Shown piece by piece: positions 19,843 to 61,805 of a stretch of 64,000 bases of DNA. Source of the DNA: Escherichia coli (GTDB lineage Bacteria; Pseudomonadota; Gammaproteobacteria; Enterobacterales; Enterobacteriaceae). Within the stretch, counting starts at the first letter, position 1; the number at the start of each line of letters is the position of its first letter. The notes under the pieces are model-generated. The model made no database searches, had not been told where the DNA came from, and saw only the letters and a program-made list of their open reading frames with translations. Both the position numbers and the translations under genes were made by a program. Location of the stretch: the NCBI RefSeq assembly GCF_036507355.1, contig NZ_AP027877.1, one strand, 5' to 3'.

Positions 19843-19876
19843 AAGCAAACCAGCTCATAAGCCGGGAGAACAACCT

Positions 19877-30192: not shown

Positions 30193-30293
<101 letters not shown>

Positions 30294-34714: not shown

Positions 34715-34900
34715 CGGGTGCAGCGTAAAACGCCTTATCCATCCTACGGTTCTGTGCTCGGGACCTGTAGGCCTGATAAGACGCGTCAGCGTCGCATCAG
34801 GCACTGAATGCCGGATGCGGCGTGAACGCCTTATCCGGCCTACGGTTCTGTGCTCGGGTCTTGTAGGCCTGATAAGACGCGCCAGCGTCGCATCAGGCAA
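34715..34900. repeat. REP/BIME cluster (about four REP units) between wzxC and wcaK
   Basis: Alternating gccggatgcggcgtgaacgccttatccggcctac and gtaggcctgataagacgcg(t/c)cagcgtcgcatcaggc units. Confidence 0.85.
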
Positions 34901-38862: not shown

Positions 38863-39036
38863 ATTTGCGACCATTCCTGGAAAAATGGAGCCATACTTAA
38901 GAACAATGCTACTGCAATCCACAACGAAGCGGCGTAACATCACAAGTAATTCAGTAATCAATTCAGGGTAATTGATGCTGGCGAAGAAAATCGAACAAGC
39001 TATAATTCAGCAACCATTTTACAGGTGGATGAAATA

Positions 39037-39930
39037 ATGACGAATTTAAAAGCAGTTATTCCTGTAGCGGGTCTTGGGATGCATATGTTGCCTGCCACTA
39101 AGGCGATTCCCAAAGAGATGCTACCGATCGTCGACAAGCCAATGATTCAGTACATTGTTGACGAGATTGTGGCTGCAGGGATCAAAGAAATCCTCCTGGT
39201 AACTCACGCGTCCAAGAACGCGGTCGAAAACCACTTCGACACCTCTTATGAATTAGAATCTCTCCTTGAACTGCGCGTGAAGCGTCAACTGCTGGCGGAA
39301 GTACAGTCCATTTGCCCGCCGGGCGTGACAATTATGAACGTGCGTCAGGGTGAACCTTTAGGTTTGGGCCACTCCATTTTATGTGCACGACCTGCCATTG
39401 GTGACAATCCATTTGTCGTGGTGCTGCCAGACGTTGTGATCGACGACGCCAGCGCCGACCCGCTGCGCTACAACCTTGCTGCCATGATTGCGCGCTTCAA
39501 CGAAACGGGCCGCAGCCAGGTGCTGGCAAAACGTATGCCAGGTGACCTCTCTGAATACTCTGTCATCCAGACCAAAGAGCCGCTGGACCGCGAAGGTAAA
39601 GTCAGCCGCATTGTTGAATTCATCGAAAAACCGGATCAGCCGCAGACGCTGGAATCAGACATCATGGCCGTTGGTCGCTATGTGCTTTCTGCCGATATTT
39701 GGCCGGAACTTGAACGCACTCAGCCAGGTGCATGGGGGCGTATTCAGCTGACTGATGCCATCGCCGAACTGGCAAAAAAACAGTCCGTTGATGCCATGCT
39801 GATGACAGGTGACAGCTACGACTGCGGTAAAAAAATGGGCTATATGCAGGCATTCGTTAAGTACGGACTGCGCAACCTGAAGGAAGGGCCAAAGTTCCGT
39901 AAGAGCATTGAGAAGTTGCTCGGGGAATAG
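39037..39930 (+). CDS. galF: UTP-glucose-1-phosphate uridylyltransferase subunit GalF
   Basis: Start at [14 protein letters not shown] (297 aa). Confidence 0.95.
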
Positions 39931-40185
39931 ATCCAAGCCAATGTAACAATAATTTAGATAAATAGCGGCAGCTAACATTCCGGCGTCTATGCTTTAAACA
40001 AAGGAATGTTACTGTCGTTTTTCTTTTTAAAACAAAGAATAACAACGAGTTAACCTACTAAGTTTAATCTATTTTTTGTTGGATTTATCCTTGTTTCTGA
40101 CAGCATTTGGTAAGACAATTGGCGTTTGAATTTAAGATAGCTTTGCGATAGCTAGCGGGGCGGGGTACATCTTTGGCATTTTGCT

Positions 40186-40223
40186 AGTGCACTGGTAGCT
40201 GTTAAGCCAGGGGCGGTAGCGTG
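40186..40223 (+). promoter_or_regulatory. JUMPstart element with ops (GGCGGTAGCGTG at 40212-40223) in the O-antigen operon leader
   Basis: agtgcactggtagctgttaagccaggggcggtagcgtg; second exact ops copy in the window. Confidence 0.85.
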
Positions 40224-40322
40224 GTAAGATTGTGTTTATATGATGCGTTCTCAAAATAAGAAATAATAATCCTGACTATTTTTATACTATTGATAATATC
40301 TGAAATAAACTTAAGAGCAAAC

Positions 40323-41327
40323 ATGAAAGTAATTGTAAATAATTTTTTTGATGGTATTTTGAAAAGAGGAATACCGATCTATACTTCTGAACTTGTGCAA
40401 AAGTTAAGAGACAATAATGTTCAGGTTATTTATGTTGCATGTCCAAAAGCATTCCATAAGCTGCCTTCATGGTTTCTGAATGTTCTTTTTATAATAGTAG
40501 AGCAGCTTTTAATACCAATTATGGGTATATTTTATAGAACTAAGTATAATATATATCCCTATAATAGTAGTTCCATCATTGACTTGTTATTAGGTAAGGC
40601 AATTGTTATAATTCATGACTTCATTAGTCTTAAGAAAAATAAACGAAATCTTGCTGCCATTTATGTGAAAGTCTGTATTTATTTTTCATCTTTTTTAGCA
40701 AAGAAAGTAATATTTATTTCTCAAAGCACTCAGCGAGTATCTAAGAGAATATCGCTATTTAAGTGTATAGAATCTATCCTGCTCCCAAATCCATTTTTCT
40801 CATTTGAGAAAATTGCTAATGTTACCGAAATAAAAGATCTTGGATATTTACTTCTAGTTTCAGGTTTAGGGGATAATAAGGATCTAGGCACAGCTCTGGA
40901 CTATTATTTTTCAATCCCAAGGGAAGAAAGAATACCATTAAAAATATTAGGTTGTGGGAATGGTATTAGCAAGGTTAACGACTTAATTGATGGGCGGGAT
41001 ACAGATAAAGAAATTGAAATTATTGGTTTTGTTTCTTTAGAGGAAGTCGTCAAACTATATTGTAATTCTAAAATTGTTTGGGCTCATTCGCTTGCCGAGG
41101 GGTATGGGAGGACTTTAGCTGAAGCAAAACTCACATGCAAAAATGTTATATGCACACGGATCTCTGCTTTCCGCGAACAAAAGGATTCGAATATTTTCTT
41201 TTATACTTACTATTCTGAGTATTATGAAGTCTATTCATACTTGGTAGATAATTCACCCAGTGTCGAAAGGAAAGCTCTGCATGAACATATTTTATTTGAA
41301 AATGAATTGAGAAAGATTTATGAGTAA
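40323..41327 (+). CDS. O-antigen glycosyltransferase (GT1/GT4-like)
   Basis: AT-rich ORF; C-terminal EGYGRTLAEA resembles the GT4 E-x7-E motif; start could also be 40290. Confidence 0.7.
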   Translation: MKVIVNNFFDGILKRGIPIYTSELVQKLRDNNVQVIYVACPKAFHKLPSWFLNVLFIIVEQLLIPIMGIFYRTKYNIYPYNSSSIIDLLLGKAIVIIHDFISLKKNKRNLAAIYVKVCIYFSSFLAKKVIFISQSTQRVSKRISLFKCIESILLPNPFFSFEKIANVTEIKDLGYLLLVSGLGDNKDLGTALDYYFSIPREERIPLKILGCGNGISKVNDLIDGRDTDKEIEIIGFVSLEEVVKLYCNSKIVWAHSLAEGYGRTLAEAKLTCKNVICTRISAFREQKDSNIFFYTYYSEYYEVYSYLVDNSPSVERKALHEHILFENELRKIYE

Positions 41328-42522
41328 TATTGATATAAATAAGAAACAGATCTTAGTTTTGACTCCACGGTTCCCGTTTCCTGTCATTGGTGGGGATCGA
41401 TTACGTATCTATAAGATCTGTAAAGAACTGTCTAAGCATTATGATCTTACGTTGCTGAGTCTGTGTGATAAACGCGAAGAGCTCAACTATGAATATGATC
41501 GTGAAGTTTTTAGTAGTGTTCACAGAGTATATCTTTCAAAGAAAAAATCTATTTTAAATGTCATATTCTCTTTGTTTTCAAATACTCCCCTACAGATTGG
41601 GTATTATAAATCTAAAGAATTTGAAGATAAACTTAAGCAGTTATTACCTGAACATTCTGCAACTCTTTCACATTTGATAAGGGTTGGTGATTATGTGAAA
41701 GAGAATAAAGATATAAATTTTTTAGAGATGACCGATGCCATTTCACTTAATTATAAACGAGTAAAGGAAAAAGCATCTTTATTGAGTTTAAAAACATTTG
41801 TATATTCTTTTGAACAAAAAAGACTCGAACGATATGAGCGAACTATAAATAACAAGTTCAGCTTGACTACTTTAGTATCACAGGTTGACTCCGATTATTT
41901 ATATCCAGACCGTCCGAATAATGTATTAGTCTGTGGAAATGGTGTTGATGCCGTTAGCTTACCTTTTTCAGAACGAAAAATAGCTAAAGATAAAAAGATA
42001 ACCCTTGTATTTATAGGTAATTTATATTCTTTGCAAAATATGGATGGTGTGAGATGGTTCACCAAGGAAGTTTTACCATTTCTTAACAAGCATGGTAATT
42101 TTGAATTTAAGGTCATCGGACGTATTACAGATAAAGATAAGAGTTGGTTAGAAAGCCAGCCTGGCGTTGTTGTCACAGGTGAAGTTGATAGCATAACTTA
42201 TGCAGCAGCTGATGGGCATATTGGTGTATGTCCTATTAGATTAGGGGCAGGTATCCAAAATAAGGTACTTGAATATATGGCGTTGGGATTACCTTGTATC
42301 TCTTCTACTGTAGGCTTTGAAGGCTTGGGAGCAGAGGAGGGTAAGGAGATTTATGTTGCCAATACAAAAGAAGAATATTTACGTGTATTAAATTATTTTA
42401 TAACAAATCTGGATAAATATACCGAAACAGCATTAGTTGCGAAAAAGTTCATCGGTGAGAATTTTTCATGGGAAGCTAAATTGAGCCCATATATCCAGAA
42501 AATTAAGGAGTCTGTTAAATAA
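41320..42522 (+). CDS. O-antigen glycosyltransferase (GT4 family)
   Basis: 400 aa; GT4-like C-terminal domain ([22 protein letters not shown]). Confidence 0.75.
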
Positions 42523-42523
42523 A

Positions 42524-43939
42524 ATGATTATCCCAATTATTATGGCCGGTGGTTCTGGTACTCGCTTATGGCCTCTTTCGCGTTCGTTATACCCGAAACA
42601 ATTTTTATCATTGATTAATGAAAATAGTTTGCTCCAGGAAACGTTGAAGAGACTTGATGGATTAAATTGTTTGCCTCCTGTCATTGTTAGCAATAATGAG
42701 CATAGATTTATTGTTGCTGAACAATTGCGCCAGTTCGGTGTGGATGACTTCCAGATTATTCTAGAACCTGTAGGTAGAAATACTGCGCCCGCCGTTGCGC
42801 TGGCTGCTCTAAAGTCTCTAGAACTCCATGGCGATCATCATATGCTGGTTCTTGCTGCTGACCATGCTATTCAGGATATTGAAGCCTTCCATGCAGCTGT
42901 TTTAGCTGCAGAACAAGAGTCCGTTGACAATAAGTTAGTGACTTTTGGCATCGTCCCGACCAAACCTGAAACTGGGTATGGCTATATTAAAAAGGGCGAA
43001 CAAGTTAAAAACTCTGTATTTAAAGTAAATTCTTTCGTCGAAAAACCTGATTTAGAAACGGCTAAAAATTATCTCGAACAAAAATGCTATTTGTGGAATA
43101 GTGGTATGTTCATGTTCAAGGCGAGCGTATATTTAGATGAATTGAAAAAATTTCGCCCTGATATTTTAGCAGCGTGTAAAGAGTCGCTTTCCAGTGCTAG
43201 TACTGATCTAGATTTTATCAGATTAAATTCTGATGTCTTTGCAGAATGTCCCGATGAGTCAATTGATTATGCGGTAATGGAAAAAACTCAGGATTGTGTA
43301 GTTATTCCACTTGATGCTGACTGGAGTGACATCGGTTCATGGACATCACTTTGGGAAATATCAGAGAAAGATGAACATGAAAACGTATCGCATGGCGATG
43401 TAATTAACTATAACAGCAGGAACAACTACATTTACTCTGAAGGTTCACTGATCAGCACTGTAGGAGTTAATAACCTTATTATAGTTCAAACTAAAGATGC
43501 GCTCCTGGTAGCACAGCAAGACAACGTACAAGACATAAAGAAGATTGTCGAAATTCTTAAAAAGCAAAAACGTAGCGAACATGTATCCCATCGCGAAGTC
43601 TATCGTCCTTGGGGACGTTATGATTCTGTAGAACGTGGCGACCGTTATCAGGTAAAACGTATTACCGTTAAGCCTGGTGAATGTCTCTCAACACAAATGC
43701 ATCATCATCGAGCTGAGCATTGGGTGGTTGTCGCTGGTACTGCAAAGGTGACTTGCGGCGAACGCACTTTTTTCGTCACTGAAAATGAGTCAACTTTCAT
43801 ACCAATTGGCACAGTTCATACCTTGGAAAATCCAGGAAAGATACCATTAGAAGTAATTGAGATTCAGTCGGGTGTATATCTAGGTGATGATGATATTGTG
43901 CGCCTAAGTGATAAATATGGTCGTGTTGAGGATAAATAA
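42524..43939 (+). CDS. manC: Mannose-1-phosphate guanylyltransferase (O-antigen copy)
   Basis: 471 aa; [16 protein letters not shown]; collinear with cpsB but AT-rich. Confidence 0.9.
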
Positions 43940-43943
43940 TTAT

Positions 43944-45365
43944 ATGAATATTACCAATGATGTAATTAAAAATAGCGGAATTGCATTTGGTACAAGTGGT
44001 GCTCGTGGATTAGTGAAAGATTTTACACCCAACGTGTGTGCTGCATTCACTTATGCTTTTATCGATGTAATGATGAAGGATTTTTCTTTTAAAGAGGTTG
44101 CGCTCGCAATAGATAATCGGCCAAGCAGCTATGCTATGGCACAAGCTTGCGCAGCAGCATTGTTGGAATGTAGTATTAAACCTATTTACTACGGTGTAAT
44201 TCCAACTCCAGCTTTGGCAAATCAAGCGATTGCCGATGGGATTCCTGCAATAATGGTTACTGGAAGTCATATTCCATTTGATAGAAATGGTTTGAAATTC
44301 TATCGTCCAGACGGGGAAATTTCAAAAGAAAATGAGAACAGCATTATACATGCTGAAAAAGAGTATCCTGATGTAACTGTATTGCCAGAATTACAATGTT
44401 CAAAGCGTGCCGCTGATACTTATATCGAGAGAAACACTTCAATTTTTTCAAATATATTTAAAGGTAAACGTATCGGGATTTATGAACATTCAAGTGCGGG
44501 ACGGGATCTTTATTCAGAAATATTCAGTAAACTTGGTGCTGAAGTTGTAAGTATTGGTAGAAGTGATAAGTTTGTGCCTATTGATACTGAAGCAGTATCA
44601 AAAGAAGATGAAGAAAAAGCTTTACACTGGTCATCTGAGTATGACCTCGATATGATTTTTTCTACCGATGGTGATGGCGATCGTCCTTTGGTTGCTGACG
44701 AAAATGGCGTTTGGTTACGGGGTGATATATTAGGACTATTTTGCTCAAAGGCAATGAATATTGAAGCGGTAGCTGTACCTGTAAGTTGTAATACGGTTAT
44801 TCAGACTTGCGGGTGGTTTAATCATGTAACGCTGACTAAAATTGGTTCACCATACGTCATTTCAGCGTTTGATTCTCTGAATAATAGTTTTGATAGGGTT
44901 GCAGGGTTTGAGGCTAACGGTGGGTATCTTTTAGGTAGCGATGTAAATTATAACAGCGGTATGATTAAAGCGCTTCCAACAAGAGATGCTGTTTTGCCTG
45001 CTTTAATGGTACTGGCACTGGCTATAAAAAATAATGTGACTATTTCAAAACTCTTGGCGGAGTTGCCACCACGATTTACCTACTCAAATAGAGTTCAAAA
45101 TTTTGCAACAAGCAAAAGCAAAAGCATTATCGCGTCAGCTCAAGAAAATCCTCAAGAATTTATCGAAAGAATAGGCTTTGTCGATCTTCATGTACAATCG
45201 GTGGATACAATTGACGGGTTAAGATTGACACTAAGTGATGGTTCAATAATCCATTTGCGACCGTCAGGCAACGCACCTGAATTGCGATGCTATGCAGAAG
45301 CAGATAACATAATAAAAGCTGAAAAATTAGTGTTAGAAGTTTTGCATAAAGTTACTCTTTTGTAA
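43944..45365 (+). CDS. manB: Phosphomannomutase (O-antigen copy)
   Basis: Start at [22 protein letters not shown] (473 aa); AT-rich. Confidence 0.85.
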
Positions 45366-45547
45366 AAAATATAAACTTTTTTCTACTCTTGAGCGGTTTG
45401 TCATTTAACCGCTCAGTAATAGATTGTTTATAAATTGTTTATATTTAGCATTGGTGTTTTTATTTGCGTTCATCCCGAATAAGAGATTGTAAAATTAACT
45501 GTTTCTTATTTTTCAAATGAGTTACTTCACTAGTAAAGCTAATTACT

Positions 45548-46879
45548 ATGCATAAGCAATATTATTTATTATTGTGCAATAAAATACAGTTTAAACATCT
45601 GGCTATATATTTTTCTGTATTTCTTTCACTATCCTCATGTTTCTTGTGGGGAGGGGCGGATACATTTGTATCGCAAGTGTATATTGATATTTTAGCCACT
45701 ATATCTACAGCGCTATTAGTTATTTTGATGTTCTATTATTATATTAATAGAGTTCGCTATTTATCACTAACCTTACTTTTTGCATTCGTTTTTTCTTTGA
45801 TTATTGGTTTGCCATCGATTTATCTTTACTATTTTAAAAACGCAAATCATGGGTTTGAAATAATTTGTATCTGGGGGATGTTGATCAATTCCATCCTTTA
45901 CTTGCAAACAACAGAGACTGTCATAAAAGAAGAAAAAAGATATTTAACTAGTTTATTTTATATTTTGTTTTCTATTGTTGCACTGTGTCAATTATACAAA
46001 ATATTAATTTATCTTATGTTTATATTGAATTCAGGAGAAGGGCATTTAGCAATTTATACTGAAAGCGAAGAATTGCTATCCCAAGTTCCATTTTTTATTC
46101 GTGCTATTAGTGGTTTTGCAGTTGTAATGTCATTGTCCACTTTTTATTTTAAAACACCGACCTACATTAAAGTTATTGCATTTGTTTTACTTGCATCTGA
46201 TTTAGCTATTGGAATACGTAATAAGTTTTTCTTTTCAGTGATTTGTATTTTTATACTATATATGTACTCTAATGAGTATAGAGTAAGAAATTTATTTAAG
46301 CAGCTCTCAAAACCAATATTTCTCATCGCCGGTTTTTTATGCTTCTCGATGGTATCGTATTTCCGTGAAGGGTACCAAATCGATTTTATGATTTATATTG
46401 GCATTGTTTTAGATTCGCTATCCTCTACTCTTGGGGGGATGCAGAATTTGTTTGATATGCAATCATCAGGATGGGATCAACTTCATCCCGCTGTGGTATT
46501 CACACAAGTATTACCGCTAAGCGGTCTTGGTTTTCTTGATGATCAACAAATCGCAAAAGATTTTTCAATAATTGTTTTAGGTGATGTATCCTCTGGTATT
46601 GCGTTGTCATCTTCAGGATTGTTAGAGTCATCGTTGCTGAGTCTAAACTTGGGAGTGATTATTTATTTACTGTATTTATCAGGGGTGATGCTATTTATTA
46701 AATGGGGACTAAATAATCAACGGATAATAATAAACTTTGTTGCCATCTCCATGATATCTGGATTTTTTTATGCTGTTCGTGGTGAACTGATTTTGCCATT
46801 GGCTTTTCTTCTAAAATCATTGCCGATTGTTCTTATATCTCCATTACTTGTTAAAAATAAAATTTATCATGGTCAGTAA
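45548..46879 (+). CDS. wzy: O-antigen polymerase
   Basis: 443-aa extremely hydrophobic, very AT-rich ORF with multiple predicted TM segments; start uncertain. Confidence 0.7.
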   Translation: MHKQYYLLLCNKIQFKHLAIYFSVFLSLSSCFLWGGADTFVSQVYIDILATISTALLVILMFYYYINRVRYLSLTLLFAFVFSLIIGLPSIYLYYFKNANHGFEIICIWGMLINSILYLQTTETVIKEEKRYLTSLFYILFSIVALCQLYKILIYLMFILNSGEGHLAIYTESEELLSQVPFFIRAISGFAVVMSLSTFYFKTPTYIKVIAFVLLASDLAIGIRNKFFFSVICIFILYMYSNEYRVRNLFKQLSKPIFLIAGFLCFSMVSYFREGYQIDFMIYIGIVLDSLSSTLGGMQNLFDMQSSGWDQLHPAVVFTQVLPLSGLGFLDDQQIAKDFSIIVLGDVSSGIALSSSGLLESSLLSLNLGVIIYLLYLSGVMLFIKWGLNNQRIIINFVAISMISGFFYAVRGELILPLAFLLKSLPIVLISPLLVKNKIYHGQ

Positions 46880-46920
46880 GTGGTTTATTTTTCGACCAGG
46901 ATCTCACCAGTAGGCATGAC

Positions 46921-48156
46921 ATGATCAAAGAAATTTTCTCCGATGGCATTTTTTCGCTATTTAATAAAATATGTTACTTCGGTTTTAAAACACTTGCAAT
47001 AATTCTGATTACTCGTTCCTTAGGAGAAGATGTAGGCGGAGAGTTCATTTTTTTAGTTGGTTTTCTCGAAGTCCTTCGGGTGGTTACTGATTTTGGTGTG
47101 GATCTGTTTGTTATAAAAAAATATAATGATTCTACAGATAAAATAAAACTATTAAATGTAACGTTTGCACAAAAAATTCTTTCTGGAGTAATTGTTTTAC
47201 TACTGTTTTGTTTGTATTCTTTTGTTCAGGGTTATCAATATAATGTCTATATTCCTATTGTGTTAGCCTTACCTGTTGCTTTATTTTTTAATTTCTCAAA
47301 TAGCTATTTTCAATCTCTAAATTCCAATAAATCTCTCACGTTTCCGATCGCAATTGCATCTATTGCAACGTGTACGATCTTCGCTATTCAGTATTTTTTC
47401 AACGTTAAATTTAACGCATGGGATTACCTGTGTGTTGAACTATTATTCGTATCGCTGGTTACACTAAAACTATTCGTTAGTGTCAAGTTTAGGTTTATTA
47501 GAACGTCAGCTTTTGATGTGCTAATGTCAATTCTTTCTTTATATAAATATACATTAAGTATAGGTCTTACAGCTGTTGTTGTAATTATTTATAGCCGTAT
47601 AGATAATTTTTATCTCAAGACATTTGCCCCAGGGGATCTTGCAGCATATGGCCAGATATTTAGGATGGTTGATCCACTGGTTATGGTTTCTTCTGTATTT
47701 TCTACAGTTGCCTATGCAAGATTTTGCCGAATTAACTTACAAGAAAAAAATACTTTTACTAAGGTGTTTCAGTTCCTGTTATGTATTGTGGCATATGGCG
47801 TGCTGAGTTCATTAGTTTATTTCTTTATAATAAAATACCTGGGTCATTTTGTATTGATTTCTAATGTTAATAATGATTTCTTGATAATGATGTTCTTGAT
47901 TGTTGCATGTGTGAAATGTATCAATGGTGGTACAACTGCAATAATTCAGTCACAGGGGTTTTATAAAGTGGGTTTGTATGTTTCGTATGTTTGCATTTTG
48001 ACATCGATACCAACTATGTATTTCTTAATAATGAAGTACGGTGTTAAAGGTGCTGCTATGACGATTCTGCTTGTAGAGTGTATTAGTTTCATATTACTTC
48101 TCTGCAGCTTTTTTATGATAAAAAAGATGCGTCCTAAAAAAACATTCGAAATGTAA
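46921..48156 (+). CDS. wzx: O-antigen flippase
   Basis: 411-aa polytopic membrane protein with Wzx-like N-terminus (RSLGEDVGGEF...DFGVD). Confidence 0.75.
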   Translation: MIKEIFSDGIFSLFNKICYFGFKTLAIILITRSLGEDVGGEFIFLVGFLEVLRVVTDFGVDLFVIKKYNDSTDKIKLLNVTFAQKILSGVIVLLLFCLYSFVQGYQYNVYIPIVLALPVALFFNFSNSYFQSLNSNKSLTFPIAIASIATCTIFAIQYFFNVKFNAWDYLCVELLFVSLVTLKLFVSVKFRFIRTSAFDVLMSILSLYKYTLSIGLTAVVVIIYSRIDNFYLKTFAPGDLAAYGQIFRMVDPLVMVSSVFSTVAYARFCRINLQEKNTFTKVFQFLLCIVAYGVLSSLVYFFIIKYLGHFVLISNVNNDFLIMMFLIVACVKCINGGTTAIIQSQGFYKVGLYVSYVCILTSIPTMYFLIMKYGVKGAAMTILLVECISFILLLCSFFMIKKMRPKKTFEM

Positions 48157-48308
48157 TCAATGAGTCCTCTTTGAATAGAATTAGTTTGTTCTATTTATGA
48201 ACACTTAGCTTGAGTAAGTTCTAACATAGATTACTAATTGTTTGATACTATCTGCTTTACAAGCATAACCGCGTATGTCGCGGTGACCACACCTGACAGG
48301 AGTATGTA

Positions 48309-58484: not shown

Positions 58485-59384
58485 TCACTCCATCATCTTC
58501 TCAATCGGCAGGACCAGAATCGAACTGGCACCCAGCGCTTTCAGTTTTTCCATCGTTTCCCAGAACAGGGTTTCGCTACTGACCATGTGCATCGCTACGC
58601 GCTGTTGATCACCCGCCAGCGGTAGAATAGTTGGGCGTTCGGCACCTGGCAGCAGGGCGATGACTTCATCCAGACGTTCGGTCGGTGCGTGCATCATGAT
58701 GTATTTTGATTCGCGCGCCTGGATCACACCCTGAATACGGGTCAGCAGTTTGTCGATCAGTTGCTGTTTGGATTCTTCCATTTCGCCATCGCGTTGTATC
58801 AGGCAGGCTTTCGAGCGATAGATAACTTCGACTTCGCGCAGGCCGTTTGCTTCCAGCGTGGCACCGGTGGAAACCAGATCGCAAATCGCATCCGCCAGTC
58901 CGGCACGCGGGGCGACTTCAACAGAACCGTTCAGTAAGCAGGATTTAAAAGAGATGCCTTTCTGGTCGAGATAACGCTTGAGCAGGTGAGGATAAGAGGT
59001 GGCGATACGTTTACCGTTTAAGGAGAGCGGGCCATCCCAGGCTTCATCAACCGGCGTTGCCAGTGAAAGTCGGCAGCCGCCGAAATCCAGACGACGCAGG
59101 GTAAAGTAGCGCGGATCTTCACCTTGGGCGCGGCGATTAAGCAACTCTTCTTCCAGCACGTTTTCGCCGATAATCCCAAGGTCTACCACGCCATCCATTA
59201 CCAGACCGGGAATGTCGTCGTCACGCACGCGCAGAATATCAATCGGCATGTTTTCTGCCATCGCGATCAGGCGCTGGGTGTGAAGATTGATTTTAATGCC
59301 ACAGCGCGCCAGCAATTCGCGTGAGTCATCACTTAAACGGCCGGATTTCTGCATAGCTATGCGTAAACGAGTGTTGTCTGTCAT
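58485..59384 (-). CDS. hisG: ATP phosphoribosyltransferase
   Basis: Start at [17 protein letters not shown] (299 aa). Confidence 0.95.
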
Positions 59385-59430
59385 TTTCTTATTCCTCTTT
59401 AAACCTGTCTGAACCGTTATCAACCGCGCA

Positions 59431-59466
59431 ATAAAAAAGCCCCCGGAAGGTGATCTTCCGGGGGCT
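59431..59466 (-). terminator. his attenuator terminator hairpin
   Basis: Minus-strand agcccccggaag...cttccgggggct followed by a U-run. Confidence 0.9.
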
Positions 59467-59529
59467 TTCTCATGCGTTCATGAACCACTGGAAGATCTGA
59501 ATGTCTTCCAGCACACATCGCCTGAAAGA

Positions 59530-59580
59530 CTAGTCAGGATGATGGTGATGATGGTGGTGTTTAAATTGAACGCGTGTCAT
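59530..59580 (-). CDS. hisL: his operon leader peptide
   Basis: Minus strand encodes MTRVQFKHHHHHHHPD with seven consecutive His codons. Confidence 0.95.
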   Translation of the reverse strand: MTRVQFKHHHHHHHPD

Positions 59581-59584
59581 AAAA

Positions 59585-59650
59585 GTCTCTGTGAATGTTT
59601 ATTCAACTGATGTCTTTTAACCTAAACCACTTTCACGTTAGAAAGCAAGG
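59585..59650 (-). promoter_or_regulatory. his operon promoter region (approximate)
   Basis: Minus strand ...cttgctttctaacgtgaaagtggtttaggttaaaagacatcagttgaataaacattcacagag immediately upstream of hisL; exact -35/-10 not delimited. Confidence 0.6.
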
Positions 59651-59799
59651 GCTTTTTTATATATTTTATGGCGATGGATTTGTTTAATGAATGAGCGGGG
59701 AAAGGAGGGGGCTAAGAGTGACTAGGTTAAAAAAGTAATCGTGAAAATATGTCATTAAACCCTCAAGAACATTGTGTTCTGTAACTAAAGTGGGCTTTG

Positions 59800-59905
59800 T
59801 TCCTGCCGGATGCGGCGTGAATGCCTTATCAGGTCTACAAATGTTGCCTAAATTCAATATATTGATGTTTTTGTAGGACTGATAAGCGGAGCGCATCAGG
59901 CAATG
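59800..59905. repeat. REP/BIME-like pair between hisL and yeeZ
   Basis: cctgccggatgcggcgtgaatgccttatcaggtctac ... gtaggactgataagcggagcgcatcaggc. Confidence 0.7.
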
Positions 59906-60005
59906 GTATATTTGCTAACAGTTTCGATTTCATTCATAGAATGAATTGTCAGTTTTGATACGCTAGCGTAGCCTTATAGATCTAAGGTGTATCAGGAGAT
60001 AACGG

Positions 60006-60830
60006 ATGAAAAAGGTCGCAATTGTCGGGTTAGGGTGGTTAGGCATGCCGCTGGCGATGTCACTTTCAGCGCGAGGCTGGCAAGTCACCGGGAGTAAAAC
60101 CACACAAGATGGTGTCGAAGCGGCCCGAATGAGTGGCATTGATAGCTATCTGCTTCGCATGGAGCCTGAGTTAGTTTGCGATTCTGACGATCTGGATGCC
60201 CTGATGGATGCCGATGCGCTGGTCATTACGCTTCCGGCACGTCGTAGCGGCCCCGGCGATGAGTTCTATTTACAAGCGGTACAAGAGTTAGTGGATAGCG
60301 CGCTGGCCCATCGTATTCCCCGAATTATTTTTACCAGCTCAACATCTGTCTATGGCGACGCGCAAGGCACGGTGAAAGAAACCACCTCGCGTAATCCGGT
60401 AACCAACAGTGGACGAGTATTAGAAGAACTCGAAGACTGGCTGCACAATTTACCCGGTACTTCGGTCGATATTCTGCGTCTTGCGGGCCTGGTCGGACCG
60501 GGACGTCATCCCGGACGCTTCTTTGCCGGAAAAACCGCGCCTGATGGTGAACATGGTGTTAATTTAGTCCATTTAGAAGATGTTATTGGCGCTATCACTC
60601 TGTTGTTACAGGCACCTAAAGGCGGACACATCTATAATATATGTGCGCCATCTCACCCTGCGCGTAATGTTTTCTATCCGCAGATGGCCCGTTTACTGGG
60701 GCTGGAACCTCCGCAGTTCAGAAATAGTCTGGACAGCGGCAAAGGTAAGATTATTGATGGCAGTCGGATTTGTAATGAACTGGGATTTGAATACCAGTAT
60801 CCCGATCCGCTGGTAATGCCGCTGGAGTAA
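60006..60830 (+). CDS. yeeZ: NAD(P)-binding epimerase/dehydratase-family protein
   Basis: 274 aa; MKKVAIVGLGWLGMPLA Rossmann N-terminus. Confidence 0.9.
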   Translation: MKKVAIVGLGWLGMPLAMSLSARGWQVTGSKTTQDGVEAARMSGIDSYLLRMEPELVCDSDDLDALMDADALVITLPARRSGPGDEFYLQAVQELVDSALAHRIPRIIFTSSTSVYGDAQGTVKETTSRNPVTNSGRVLEELEDWLHNLPGTSVDILRLAGLVGPGRHPGRFFAGKTAPDGEHGVNLVHLEDVIGAITLLLQAPKGGHIYNICAPSHPARNVFYPQMARLLGLEPPQFRNSLDSGKGKIIDGSRICNELGFEYQYPDPLVMPLE

Positions 60831-60875
60831 ACGATCACGCCAGCAGGACGCCGCATGCACTGCAAGGGGGCGTGT

Positions 60876-61805
60876 ATGAAACCACTGCTGGATGTGTTGA
60901 TGATCCTCGATGCCTTAGAAAAAGAAGGCAGTTTTGCGGCGGCGTCGGCCAAACTCTACAAGACGCCGTCCGCTCTGAGTTACACCGTTCACAAGCTGGA
61001 AAGCGACCTTAATATTCAATTACTTGATCGTAGCGGTCACCGCGCTAAATTCACCCGTACCGGAAAAATGTTATTAGAGAAGGGGCGGGAAGTTCTGCAT
61101 ACCGTGCGAGAACTGGAAAAGCAGGCGATCAAACTGCATGAAGGCTGGGAAAACGAGCTGGTGATTGGCGTGGACGACACGTTTCCTTTTTCTCTGCTTG
61201 CGCCACTGATTGAAGCTTTTTATCAACATCATAGCGTGACGCGCCTGAAGTTTATCAATGGCGTACTCGGTGGTTCCTGGGATGCCCTGACTCAGGGGCG
61301 AGCGGATATTATTGTTGGCGCGATGCATGAGCCACCATCTTCCAGTGAGTTTGGTTTCTCGCGGTTGGGCGATCTGGAACAAGTCTTTGCGGTCGCGCCT
61401 CATCATCCGTTAGCCCAGGAAGAAGAACCGTTAAACCGTCGTATCATTAAACGATATCGGGCGATTGTGGTGGGGGACACTGCGCAGGCCGGCGCTTCTA
61501 CGGCCTCACAACTTCTCGACGAACAAGAAGCCATTACCGTTTTCGATTTTAAAACCAAGCTGGAGCTGCAAATTAGCGGCCTCGGCTGCGGCTATTTACC
61601 CCGTTATCTGGCGCAACGTTTTCTCGATAGTGGCGCGTTAATCGAGAAGAAAGTGGTCGCCCAAACTCTCTTTGAACCCGTCTGGATTGGCTGGAATGAA
61701 CAGACCGCAGGGCTTGCCAGCGGCTGGTGGCGGGATGAAATTTTAGCAAATAGTGCGATCGCCGGTGTTTATGCAAAATCTGATGACGGAAAATCAGCCA
61801 TTTAA
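60876..61805 (+). CDS. yeeY: LysR-family transcriptional regulator
   Basis: Start at MKPLLDVLMILDALEKEGSFAAAS (309 aa); N-terminal HTH. Confidence 0.9.
   Translation: MKPLLDVLMILDALEKEGSFAAASAKLYKTPSALSYTVHKLESDLNIQLLDRSGHRAKFTRTGKMLLEKGREVLHTVRELEKQAIKLHEGWENELVIGVDDTFPFSLLAPLIEAFYQHHSVTRLKFINGVLGGSWDALTQGRADIIVGAMHEPPSSSEFGFSRLGDLEQVFAVAPHHPLAQEEEPLNRRIIKRYRAIVVGDTAQAGASTASQLLDEQEAITVFDFKTKLELQISGLGCGYLPRYLAQRFLDSGALIEKKVVAQTLFEPVWIGWNEQTAGLASGWWRDEILANSAIAGVYAKSDDGKSAI

Follow-up and report, generated by a model that had tools for sequence, protein, structure and literature searches.

The window is a stretch of 64,000 nucleotides of E. coli contig NZ_AP027877.1 (assembly GCF_036507355.1). 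It covers the his, O-antigen, and colanic-acid region of the chromosome in the orientation opposite to that of the K-12 map. The subject of this study is the spacer between hisL and yeeZ. To the left of this interval, on the minus strand, are hisG, the His leader, and hisL, and to the right, on the plus strand, are yeeZ, yeeY, yoeI, and plaP (Table 1). The gap is 425 bp long (positions 59581–60005), the size reported in an earlier note made from the sequence alone. In K-12 the toxin-antitoxin (TA) genes yefM and yoeB are located in this gap, on the strand of yeeZ. The earlier note gave this gene order correctly and described the pair as absent from the window, and it is: the best tblastn match within the interval has an E-value of 0.67.

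Table 1. Features of the hisL-yeeZ region of the window
Feature	Position	Strand	Remarks
His operon leader/attenuator RNA	59431–59554	−	Rfam RF00514, 131.2 bits, E = 6.5e-23
hisL leader peptide gene, MTRVQFKHHHHHHHPD	59530–59580	−	Read from the sequence; agrees with the G4/9 annotation
his promoter region (assumed)	59612–59667	−	−10 TAGGTT 59619–59624, −35 TTGCTT 59643–59648, A/T-rich upstream tract
Escherichia-specific DNA common to both alleles, about 51 bp	59668–59718		Boundary approximate
Allele-specific segment, 210 bp	59719–59928		In place of the 652-bp yefM-yoeB segment of K-12
Unique, non-repeated left part	59719–59803		No conserved ORF; conserved in E. albertii and others
Y-type REP, left BIME arm	59804–59838	+	3 mismatches to the Y consensus, 0 expected by chance
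L-type linker, 34 bp, with IHF-like site	59839–59872
Short z-type REP, right BIME arm, inverted relative to the Y REP	59873–59902	−	2 mismatches, 0 expected by chance
Region upstream of yeeZ common to all alleles, probably ancestral	59929–60005	+	100% identity to K-12; alignable with other genera
yeeZ, SDR family oxidoreductase	60006–60830	+	ORF; annotated in K-12 and G4/9

The hexamers at 59612–59667 are visible in the sequence, and we take them to be those of the his promoter. This region is alignable with other genera, and both the core promoter and the attenuator are the same in the two alleles of the spacer that are described below. The variable DNA starts some 100 bp upstream of the point where his transcription probably begins. 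On the opposite side, the region immediately upstream of yeeZ contains a palindrome, TTCATTC-ATA-GAATGAA (59929–59945), a −10-like TAGAAT (59937–59942), and the yeeZ ribosome-binding site. An Rfam scan of positions 58500–61000 identified the His leader only, with no sRNA in the spacer, and a scan of 59380–60100 for consensus terminators found none.

The window is 99.6–99.8% identical to strain G4/9 (NZ_CP060073.1), which differs from it by an extra copy of IS3 in the O-antigen cluster and by scattered small indels. That cluster (approximately 39000–48200) belongs to the O17/O44/O73/O77/O106 wzx/wzy family; its G4/9 counterpart has many frameshift annotations besides the extra IS3, and the window has no IS3 there. 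A gene for an IS110-family transposase is located at 12498–13523, between asmA and yegH, and is 99.9% identical to the G4/9 copy. The hisG gene of K-12 ER3413 (L001 642–1505) is annotated as 864 bp, compared with 900 bp in the window and G4/9, and aligns to that of the window with 36 gap positions and 94.1% identity.

Junctions with the K-12 allele

Two checks had been proposed in the earlier note, an alignment with K-12 and a tBLASTn search with YefM and YoeB, and both were carried out. In the alignment, the window and K-12 share their sequence up to 59718 (one mismatch) and again from 59929 (no mismatch). Between the exact junctions, 59718/59719 on the left and 59928/59929 on the right, the window has 210 bp and K-12 has a 652-bp segment that carries yefM-yoeB, starting 144 bp upstream of the yefM start codon and ending 5 bp past the yoeB stop codon. 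The flanks are 99–100% identical to those of K-12 despite the differing alleles, which is consistent with shuffling of the alleles by homologous recombination. No homology was detected between the 210-bp and 652-bp segments, 89 of 300 shuffles scoring as well as their best local alignment. Also considered was that the first 80–100 bp of the K-12 segment might be homologous, though diverged, to the unique left part of the window segment, in which case the TA cassette would replace the BIME exactly. This was rejected because neither global nor local alignments were better than those of shuffled sequences.

The tBLASTn search was run over both the interval and the 64-kb window and gave no remnant of the module. 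The best E-value of K-12 YefM, a PhdYeFM antitoxin (PF02604), was 4.4 in the interval and 2.0 in the window, and that of K-12 YoeB, a YoeB-family toxin (PF06769), was 0.67 and 1.3, respectively. None of the small ORFs of the interval has a match in Pfam, in which the K-12 controls YefM and YoeB score 6e-28 and 3e-43. The TGTACA operator cores of the yefM promoter, two of which lie just upstream of yefM in K-12, do not occur in 59581–60005. The interval does not have the marks of a deletion scar or a pseudogenised TA locus: no residual similarity to the cassette or its promoter was detected, and the junctions lie outside the cassette.

The left junction in K-12 (L001 1825–1862, corresponding to 59718/59719 of the window) falls inside a perfect 10-bp inverted repeat, GCTAAGAGGA-CTG-TCCTCTTAGC, with one half in shared DNA and the other in TA-specific DNA. 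E. whittamii and strain FDAARGOS_1284 have TA haplotypes in which this repeat is imperfect.

The BIME element

Reading from left to right, the 210-bp segment starts with about 85 bp of unique sequence. The Y REP follows, then the 34-bp linker and the inverted z REP, and about 26 bp of trailing sequence complete it. The earlier note had called the repeats REP/BIME-like, and they are genuine: both REPs match their consensus, with 0 matches expected by chance, and their REP status is backed by direct alignment with a paralogue in K-12. That paralogue is full-length and lies between yiiF and fdhE; its REPs and linker are arranged as in the window element, and the linker motif TAAATTCAAT(A/G)TATTG occurs in both. 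Full-length paralogues of the 106-bp BIME number at least 40 in essentially every E. coli genome. The unique left part, on the other hand, is present once per genome and only in genomes with the BIME allele (934 genomes, by megablast). The stretches of the K-12 MG1655 RefSeq record that were examined have no annotated repeat features. When the element is folded as single-stranded DNA, the two arms pair (−21.1 kcal/mol, z = −4.45). The short z REP presumably corresponds to the type named z1.

The linker has an IHF-like site, read as ATTCAATATATTG on the plus strand and as CATCAATATATTG on the minus strand; the two overlap (59852–59867), and each agrees with WATCAANNNNTTR at 12 of 13 positions. 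These are the only 12/13 matches in the interval, although about 0.8 are expected by chance per 425 bp of this composition and the match taken alone is not significant.

BIME-1 elements are defined by a y REP and a z1 REP in inverse orientation, present in a single copy, with a long L linker that often has an IHF site (PMC3333891). RIB elements are located at the 3′ ends of transcription units, according to the title of Boccard and Prentki 1993 (cited in PMC3333891). Judged by its sequence, the window element is a single BIME of the BIME-1/RIB (RIP) type. It shares with that type the inverse Y and short z REPs, the single copy at the locus, the 34-bp linker with its putative IHF-like core, and a family of full-length paralogues in every E. 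coli genome. It differs in its location between the divergent hisL (minus strand) and yeeZ (plus strand), upstream of both. No conserved ORF ends beside it. The 3′-end location is typical of BIME-1/RIB elements and not a strict criterion. The position between divergent 5′ ends would fit a gene that once ended just upstream of the BIME.

Three other Y-type REPs are present in the window, at 19809–19843, 30213–30247, and 34809–34843, with 0–2 mismatches to the consensus. They lie in the colanic-acid cluster and agree with the REP-bearing spacers given for that region in PMC3158064.

Distribution of the alleles

Among 5426 complete E. coli genomes, the allele of the window (BIME allele) was found in 1193 (22%), counted where at least 80% of a 731-bp query was covered, and the TA allele with yefM-yoeB in 4212 (78%). 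The locus is therefore strain-variable, as had been suspected from the sequence. The accompanying description of a TA locus "occupied by repeats" is supported as well, with one nuance: repeats do lie at the TA site, but they probably did not fill the hole of a lost TA module, as discussed below. Carriers of the BIME allele include O157:H7, BL21, SMS-3-5, and an ST69 strain; the TA allele is carried by K-12, ST131, O103:H2, O145:H28, and an O6:K2:H1 strain. DNA of yefM-yoeB, down to about 70% identity, was detected in only 4218 genomes, of which six at most have no full-length copy. Genomes that lack the his-linked pair therefore almost never have a copy elsewhere. The window copy of the BIME allele differs by a few substitutions and by a 1-bp deletion near 59759, the latter being rare (only two genomes at 99% identity or better). 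The window BIME is 97–100% identical to that of O157:H7 genomes, and the unique left part is 98.9% identical.

The TA haplotypes within E. coli are deeply diverged, judging from K-12 and FDAARGOS_1284: the 144 bp upstream of yefM have 88.9% identity (L001 1840–1983 and L005 2696–2839), and the two yeeZ genes differ at 6 of 825 nucleotides. In the laboratory strain TUM1509 (H31, NZ_CP195093.1, 1795996–1797713) an IS1A is located inside the hisL-yefM-yoeB-yeeZ stretch.

The spacer is much shorter outside the genus. One genome per species was scanned with YeeZ, giving 80 loci, and in all 75 non-Escherichia species of Enterobacteriaceae sampled, including those of Citrobacter, Salmonella, Klebsiella, Enterobacter, and Kluyvera, the distance from hisL to yeeZ is 155–188 bp, with neither the TA genes nor the BIME. 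Alignment with these genera shows about 260 extra bp in Escherichia (roughly 59668–59928), adjoining the his promoter on its upstream side. Of this DNA, about 51 bp at the left end are common to both alleles, being found in the window, K-12, and E. albertii and missing from the Citrobacter, Salmonella, Klebsiella-type, and Kluyvera-type intervals; the rest is allele-specific.

Seven genomes labelled E. coli also have a short spacer. In six of them it is 178 bp long, within a hisG-hisL-yeeZ segment 94.9% identical to that of Kluyvera georgiana, and these look like either imports of a his-region segment or mislabelled genomes. The gene yeeY is missing from these Kluyvera-type genomes, for example MEI4BO-21 (L003, NZ_CM149565.1, 2068–4149). 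The MEI4BO-21 group was considered as a cryptic-clade outgroup and rejected, since the similarity to K. georgiana points to an imported region and not to basal E. coli. The seventh, LZYWN_4 (L004, NZ_CP046416.1, 1462–3558), has a Klebsiella/Raoultella-type his-yeeZ region with a 176-bp spacer, which is consistent with inter-genus transfer of the his/O-antigen region. This region is about 89% identical to Raoultella and Klebsiella representatives, and its proteins have accessions in the Klebsiella range.

Within Escherichia, an orthologous BIME allele of 424–426 bp is present in E. albertii, Escherichia sp. E1V33, Escherichia sp. MOD1-EC7003, and the divergent E. coli strain E69. Their 210-bp segments are 88%, 95%, 93%, and 97% identical to that of the window, and the synonymous divergence of their yeeZ genes is 0.37, 0.24, 0.24, and 0.25, respectively. 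The two measures track each other in three of the four lineages, E. albertii being the most diverged on both; E69 does not fit, as its segment is less diverged than its yeeZ predicts. Only E. whittamii, among the five divergent Escherichia lineages, has the TA allele. Its YefM and YoeB are 100% identical to the K-12 proteins, and synonymous differences from K-12 affect 9 of 112 sites in yefM-yoeB, whereas the neighbouring yeeZ has 48 in 199 (Fisher p = 4e-4). Since yefM-yoeB is far less diverged from K-12 than yeeZ is, the E. whittamii cassette appears to be younger than the species split. The cassette also occurs, from promoter to stop codon, on plasmids of Salmonella, Citrobacter, and E. marmotae with 83–86% identity, and this plasmid-borne part corresponds to positions 81–648 of the 652-bp K-12-specific segment.

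The presence/absence polymorphism itself, including its REPs, has been known since 2011. O157 Sakai was reported to be without yoeB and yefM between yeeZ and hisL, and the yeeZ-hisL spacer was listed with its REPs among the regions bearing indels (Iguchi et al. 2011; PMC3158064). The window agrees with O157 Sakai in the site, the flanking genes, the absence of yoeB and yefM, and the REPs in the spacer, and nothing material differs. What the present analysis adds is the exact junctions, the allele frequencies, the BIME-1/RIB classification, the short spacer of other genera, and an argument for polarity. More generally, TA modules have been reported to be distributed unevenly among phylogroups (Fiedoruk et al. 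2015; Ramisetty and Santhosh 2016, as cited in PMC7167474), and for the type II modules of E. coli both an uneven distribution and horizontal transfer are established in work cited by PMC7167474 and PMC5120126.

A similar case is that of ccdO157 (Mine et al. 2009, listed in PMC7167474), a chromosomal TA module variably present between folA and apaH in E. coli. Like yefM-yoeB, it is a strain-variable type II TA cassette that lies between conserved housekeeping genes and has plasmid relatives. The present locus differs in that its TA-free allele has a 210-bp BIME segment of its own, itself an Escherichia-specific addition. The TA-free state of the ccdO157 site is a short plain spacer.

Probable order of events and possible function

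The explanation that best accounts for these data, with a probability of about 0.8, is that the window has the yefM-yoeB-free allele of a known two-allele polymorphism in the divergent promoter region of hisL and yeeZ. It is also fairly likely, from sequence comparison, that the BIME allele is the older Escherichia state and not a deletion scar, because orthologues of the allele are present in E. albertii and further Escherichia lineages. The strain would then carry the older allele and would not have lost a TA module at this site. We infer the order short spacer, BIME, TA from four observations: the spacer of other genera, the orthology within Escherichia, the transfer to E. whittamii, and the plasmid relatives of the cassette. 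The ancestral enterobacterial spacer would have been about 160–180 bp long. Some 260 bp, the BIME among them, would then have been added immediately upstream of the his promoter in an early ancestor of Escherichia. In a lineage belonging to E. coli or close to it, the 210-bp BIME part would later have given way, probably through illegitimate recombination, to a plasmid-related yefM-yoeB cassette accompanied by about 80 bp of upstream DNA. Homologous recombination in the conserved his and yeeZ flanks may since have carried both alleles from strain to strain and also into E. whittamii.

This polarity is drawn from a sample of only five non-coli Escherichia lineages, in a scan in which E. fergusonii, E. 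marmotae, and E. ruysiae do not appear by name. Moreover, the his/O-antigen region recombines across lineages, and shared alleles need not be vertically inherited. Between E. coli and E. albertii the distance is about 0.12 in the BIME segment but 0.37 at the synonymous sites of yeeZ, so that the BIME allele, too, may have been transferred later. In both alleles the right junction lies at the very edge of the Escherichia-specific DNA, a feature that a simple replacement does not explain. The unusual location of the BIME and the inverted repeat at the K-12 left junction also speak against this polarity.

The alternative that retains some weight, though we regard it as unlikely, is that the TA allele is the older one in E. 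coli. In that case a BIME would have taken the place of a deleted yefM-yoeB, whether through the activity of a REP-associated transposase, through illegitimate recombination, or otherwise, and the new allele would have spread to other Escherichia species by recombination. BIMEs are known sources of intergenic polymorphism, going by the titles in the reference list of PMC3158064, and an element of the RIB type is expected at the 3′ end of a transcription unit, which is where yoeB ends. The TA allele is that of the majority (78%), and its haplotypes are deeply diverged (89% identity over the 144 bp upstream of yefM, against 6/825 differences in yeeZ). The inverted repeat at the K-12 left junction is easier to explain by a break in TA-type sequence. 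However, four of the five divergent lineages, including E. albertii, have the BIME allele, with a divergence that tracks the species in three of them, and the sole non-coli TA allele looks introgressed (p = 4e-4). The cassette has relatives on plasmids, and no remnant of it was found in the window interval. Finally, the BIME allele includes about 110 bp of allele-specific non-REP DNA, which a simple BIME insertion would not supply.

An ancestor with the TA cassette and the BIME segment in tandem, in either order, from which each modern allele lost one, would account for the exact same left and right junctions in both alleles and for a RIB-type element where the 3′ end of yoeB would be. We consider such reciprocal deletions highly improbable. 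Genomes with yefM-yoeB DNA (4218), with the BIME allele (1193), and with the short spacer (7) add up to 5418 of 5426, so that no overlap is needed. The unique part of the BIME segment is single-copy, and the number of genomes that have it does not exceed that of the BIME-allele carriers. No combined TA and BIME allele was seen, and the counts leave room for a handful at most, not every genome being listed individually. Scarcely any credit can be given to the idea that the interval contains a degraded TA pair or that the 70-codon ORF present at 59684–59896 (minus strand) is a real small gene: tblastn E-values are 0.67 or worse, Pfam gives no match where the controls score on the order of 1e-28 and 1e-43, and the ORF overlaps both REPs. 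The earlier note had likewise seen no resemblance of its 70-aa product to YefM or YoeB. Because the ORF is truncated or absent in the orthologous intervals of four Escherichia lineages (broken in E. albertii, E1V33, and MOD1-EC7003 and shortened in E69), it is not regarded as a gene.

With the BIME allele taken as the probable older state, the locus shows that a TA-free site need not be an empty site, that a chromosomal TA cassette can be an incoming element, and that BIMEs add to the intergenic polymorphism beside the recombination-prone his/O-antigen region. Beyond annotation, this has little weight. It does mean that about one-fifth of sequenced E. coli, including BL21 and O157:H7, are without the K-12-type YoeB toxin, which bears on any extrapolation to these strains of results on TA modules, persistence, or Lon-dependent mRNA cleavage in K-12.

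Functional differences between the alleles would concern yeeZ in the first place. A promoter-like match, CTAACA-16-TAGAAT (59915–59942), which is a consensus match only, takes its −35 hexamer and the region upstream of it from allele-specific DNA, and expression of yeeZ could therefore differ between the alleles. No terminator separates yoeB from yeeZ in the TA allele, so transcripts from the yefM promoter could conceivably continue into yeeZ. IHF may bind the linker of the BIME and might thereby affect expression of his or yeeZ. It is doubtful, all the same, that the spacer is a long-lived and functionally meaningful two-allele switch and not a case of neutral presence/absence. In such a switch, the BIME allele could put a predicted IHF-bent, gyrase-attracting element between the divergent promoters, and in the TA allele transcription from the yefM promoter could run on into yeeZ-yeeY. 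A recombination hot spot could be marked by the exact right junction that both alleles use, together with weak inverted repeats (59678–59694 and 59930–59946).

These inverted repeats are imperfect, 17 bp long, and 76% complementary; they contain TTTAATGAATGA and TCATTCAT, and in both alleles nearly all of the Escherichia-specific DNA lies between them. The Kluyvera-type short spacer also has the motif CATTCATTAAA.
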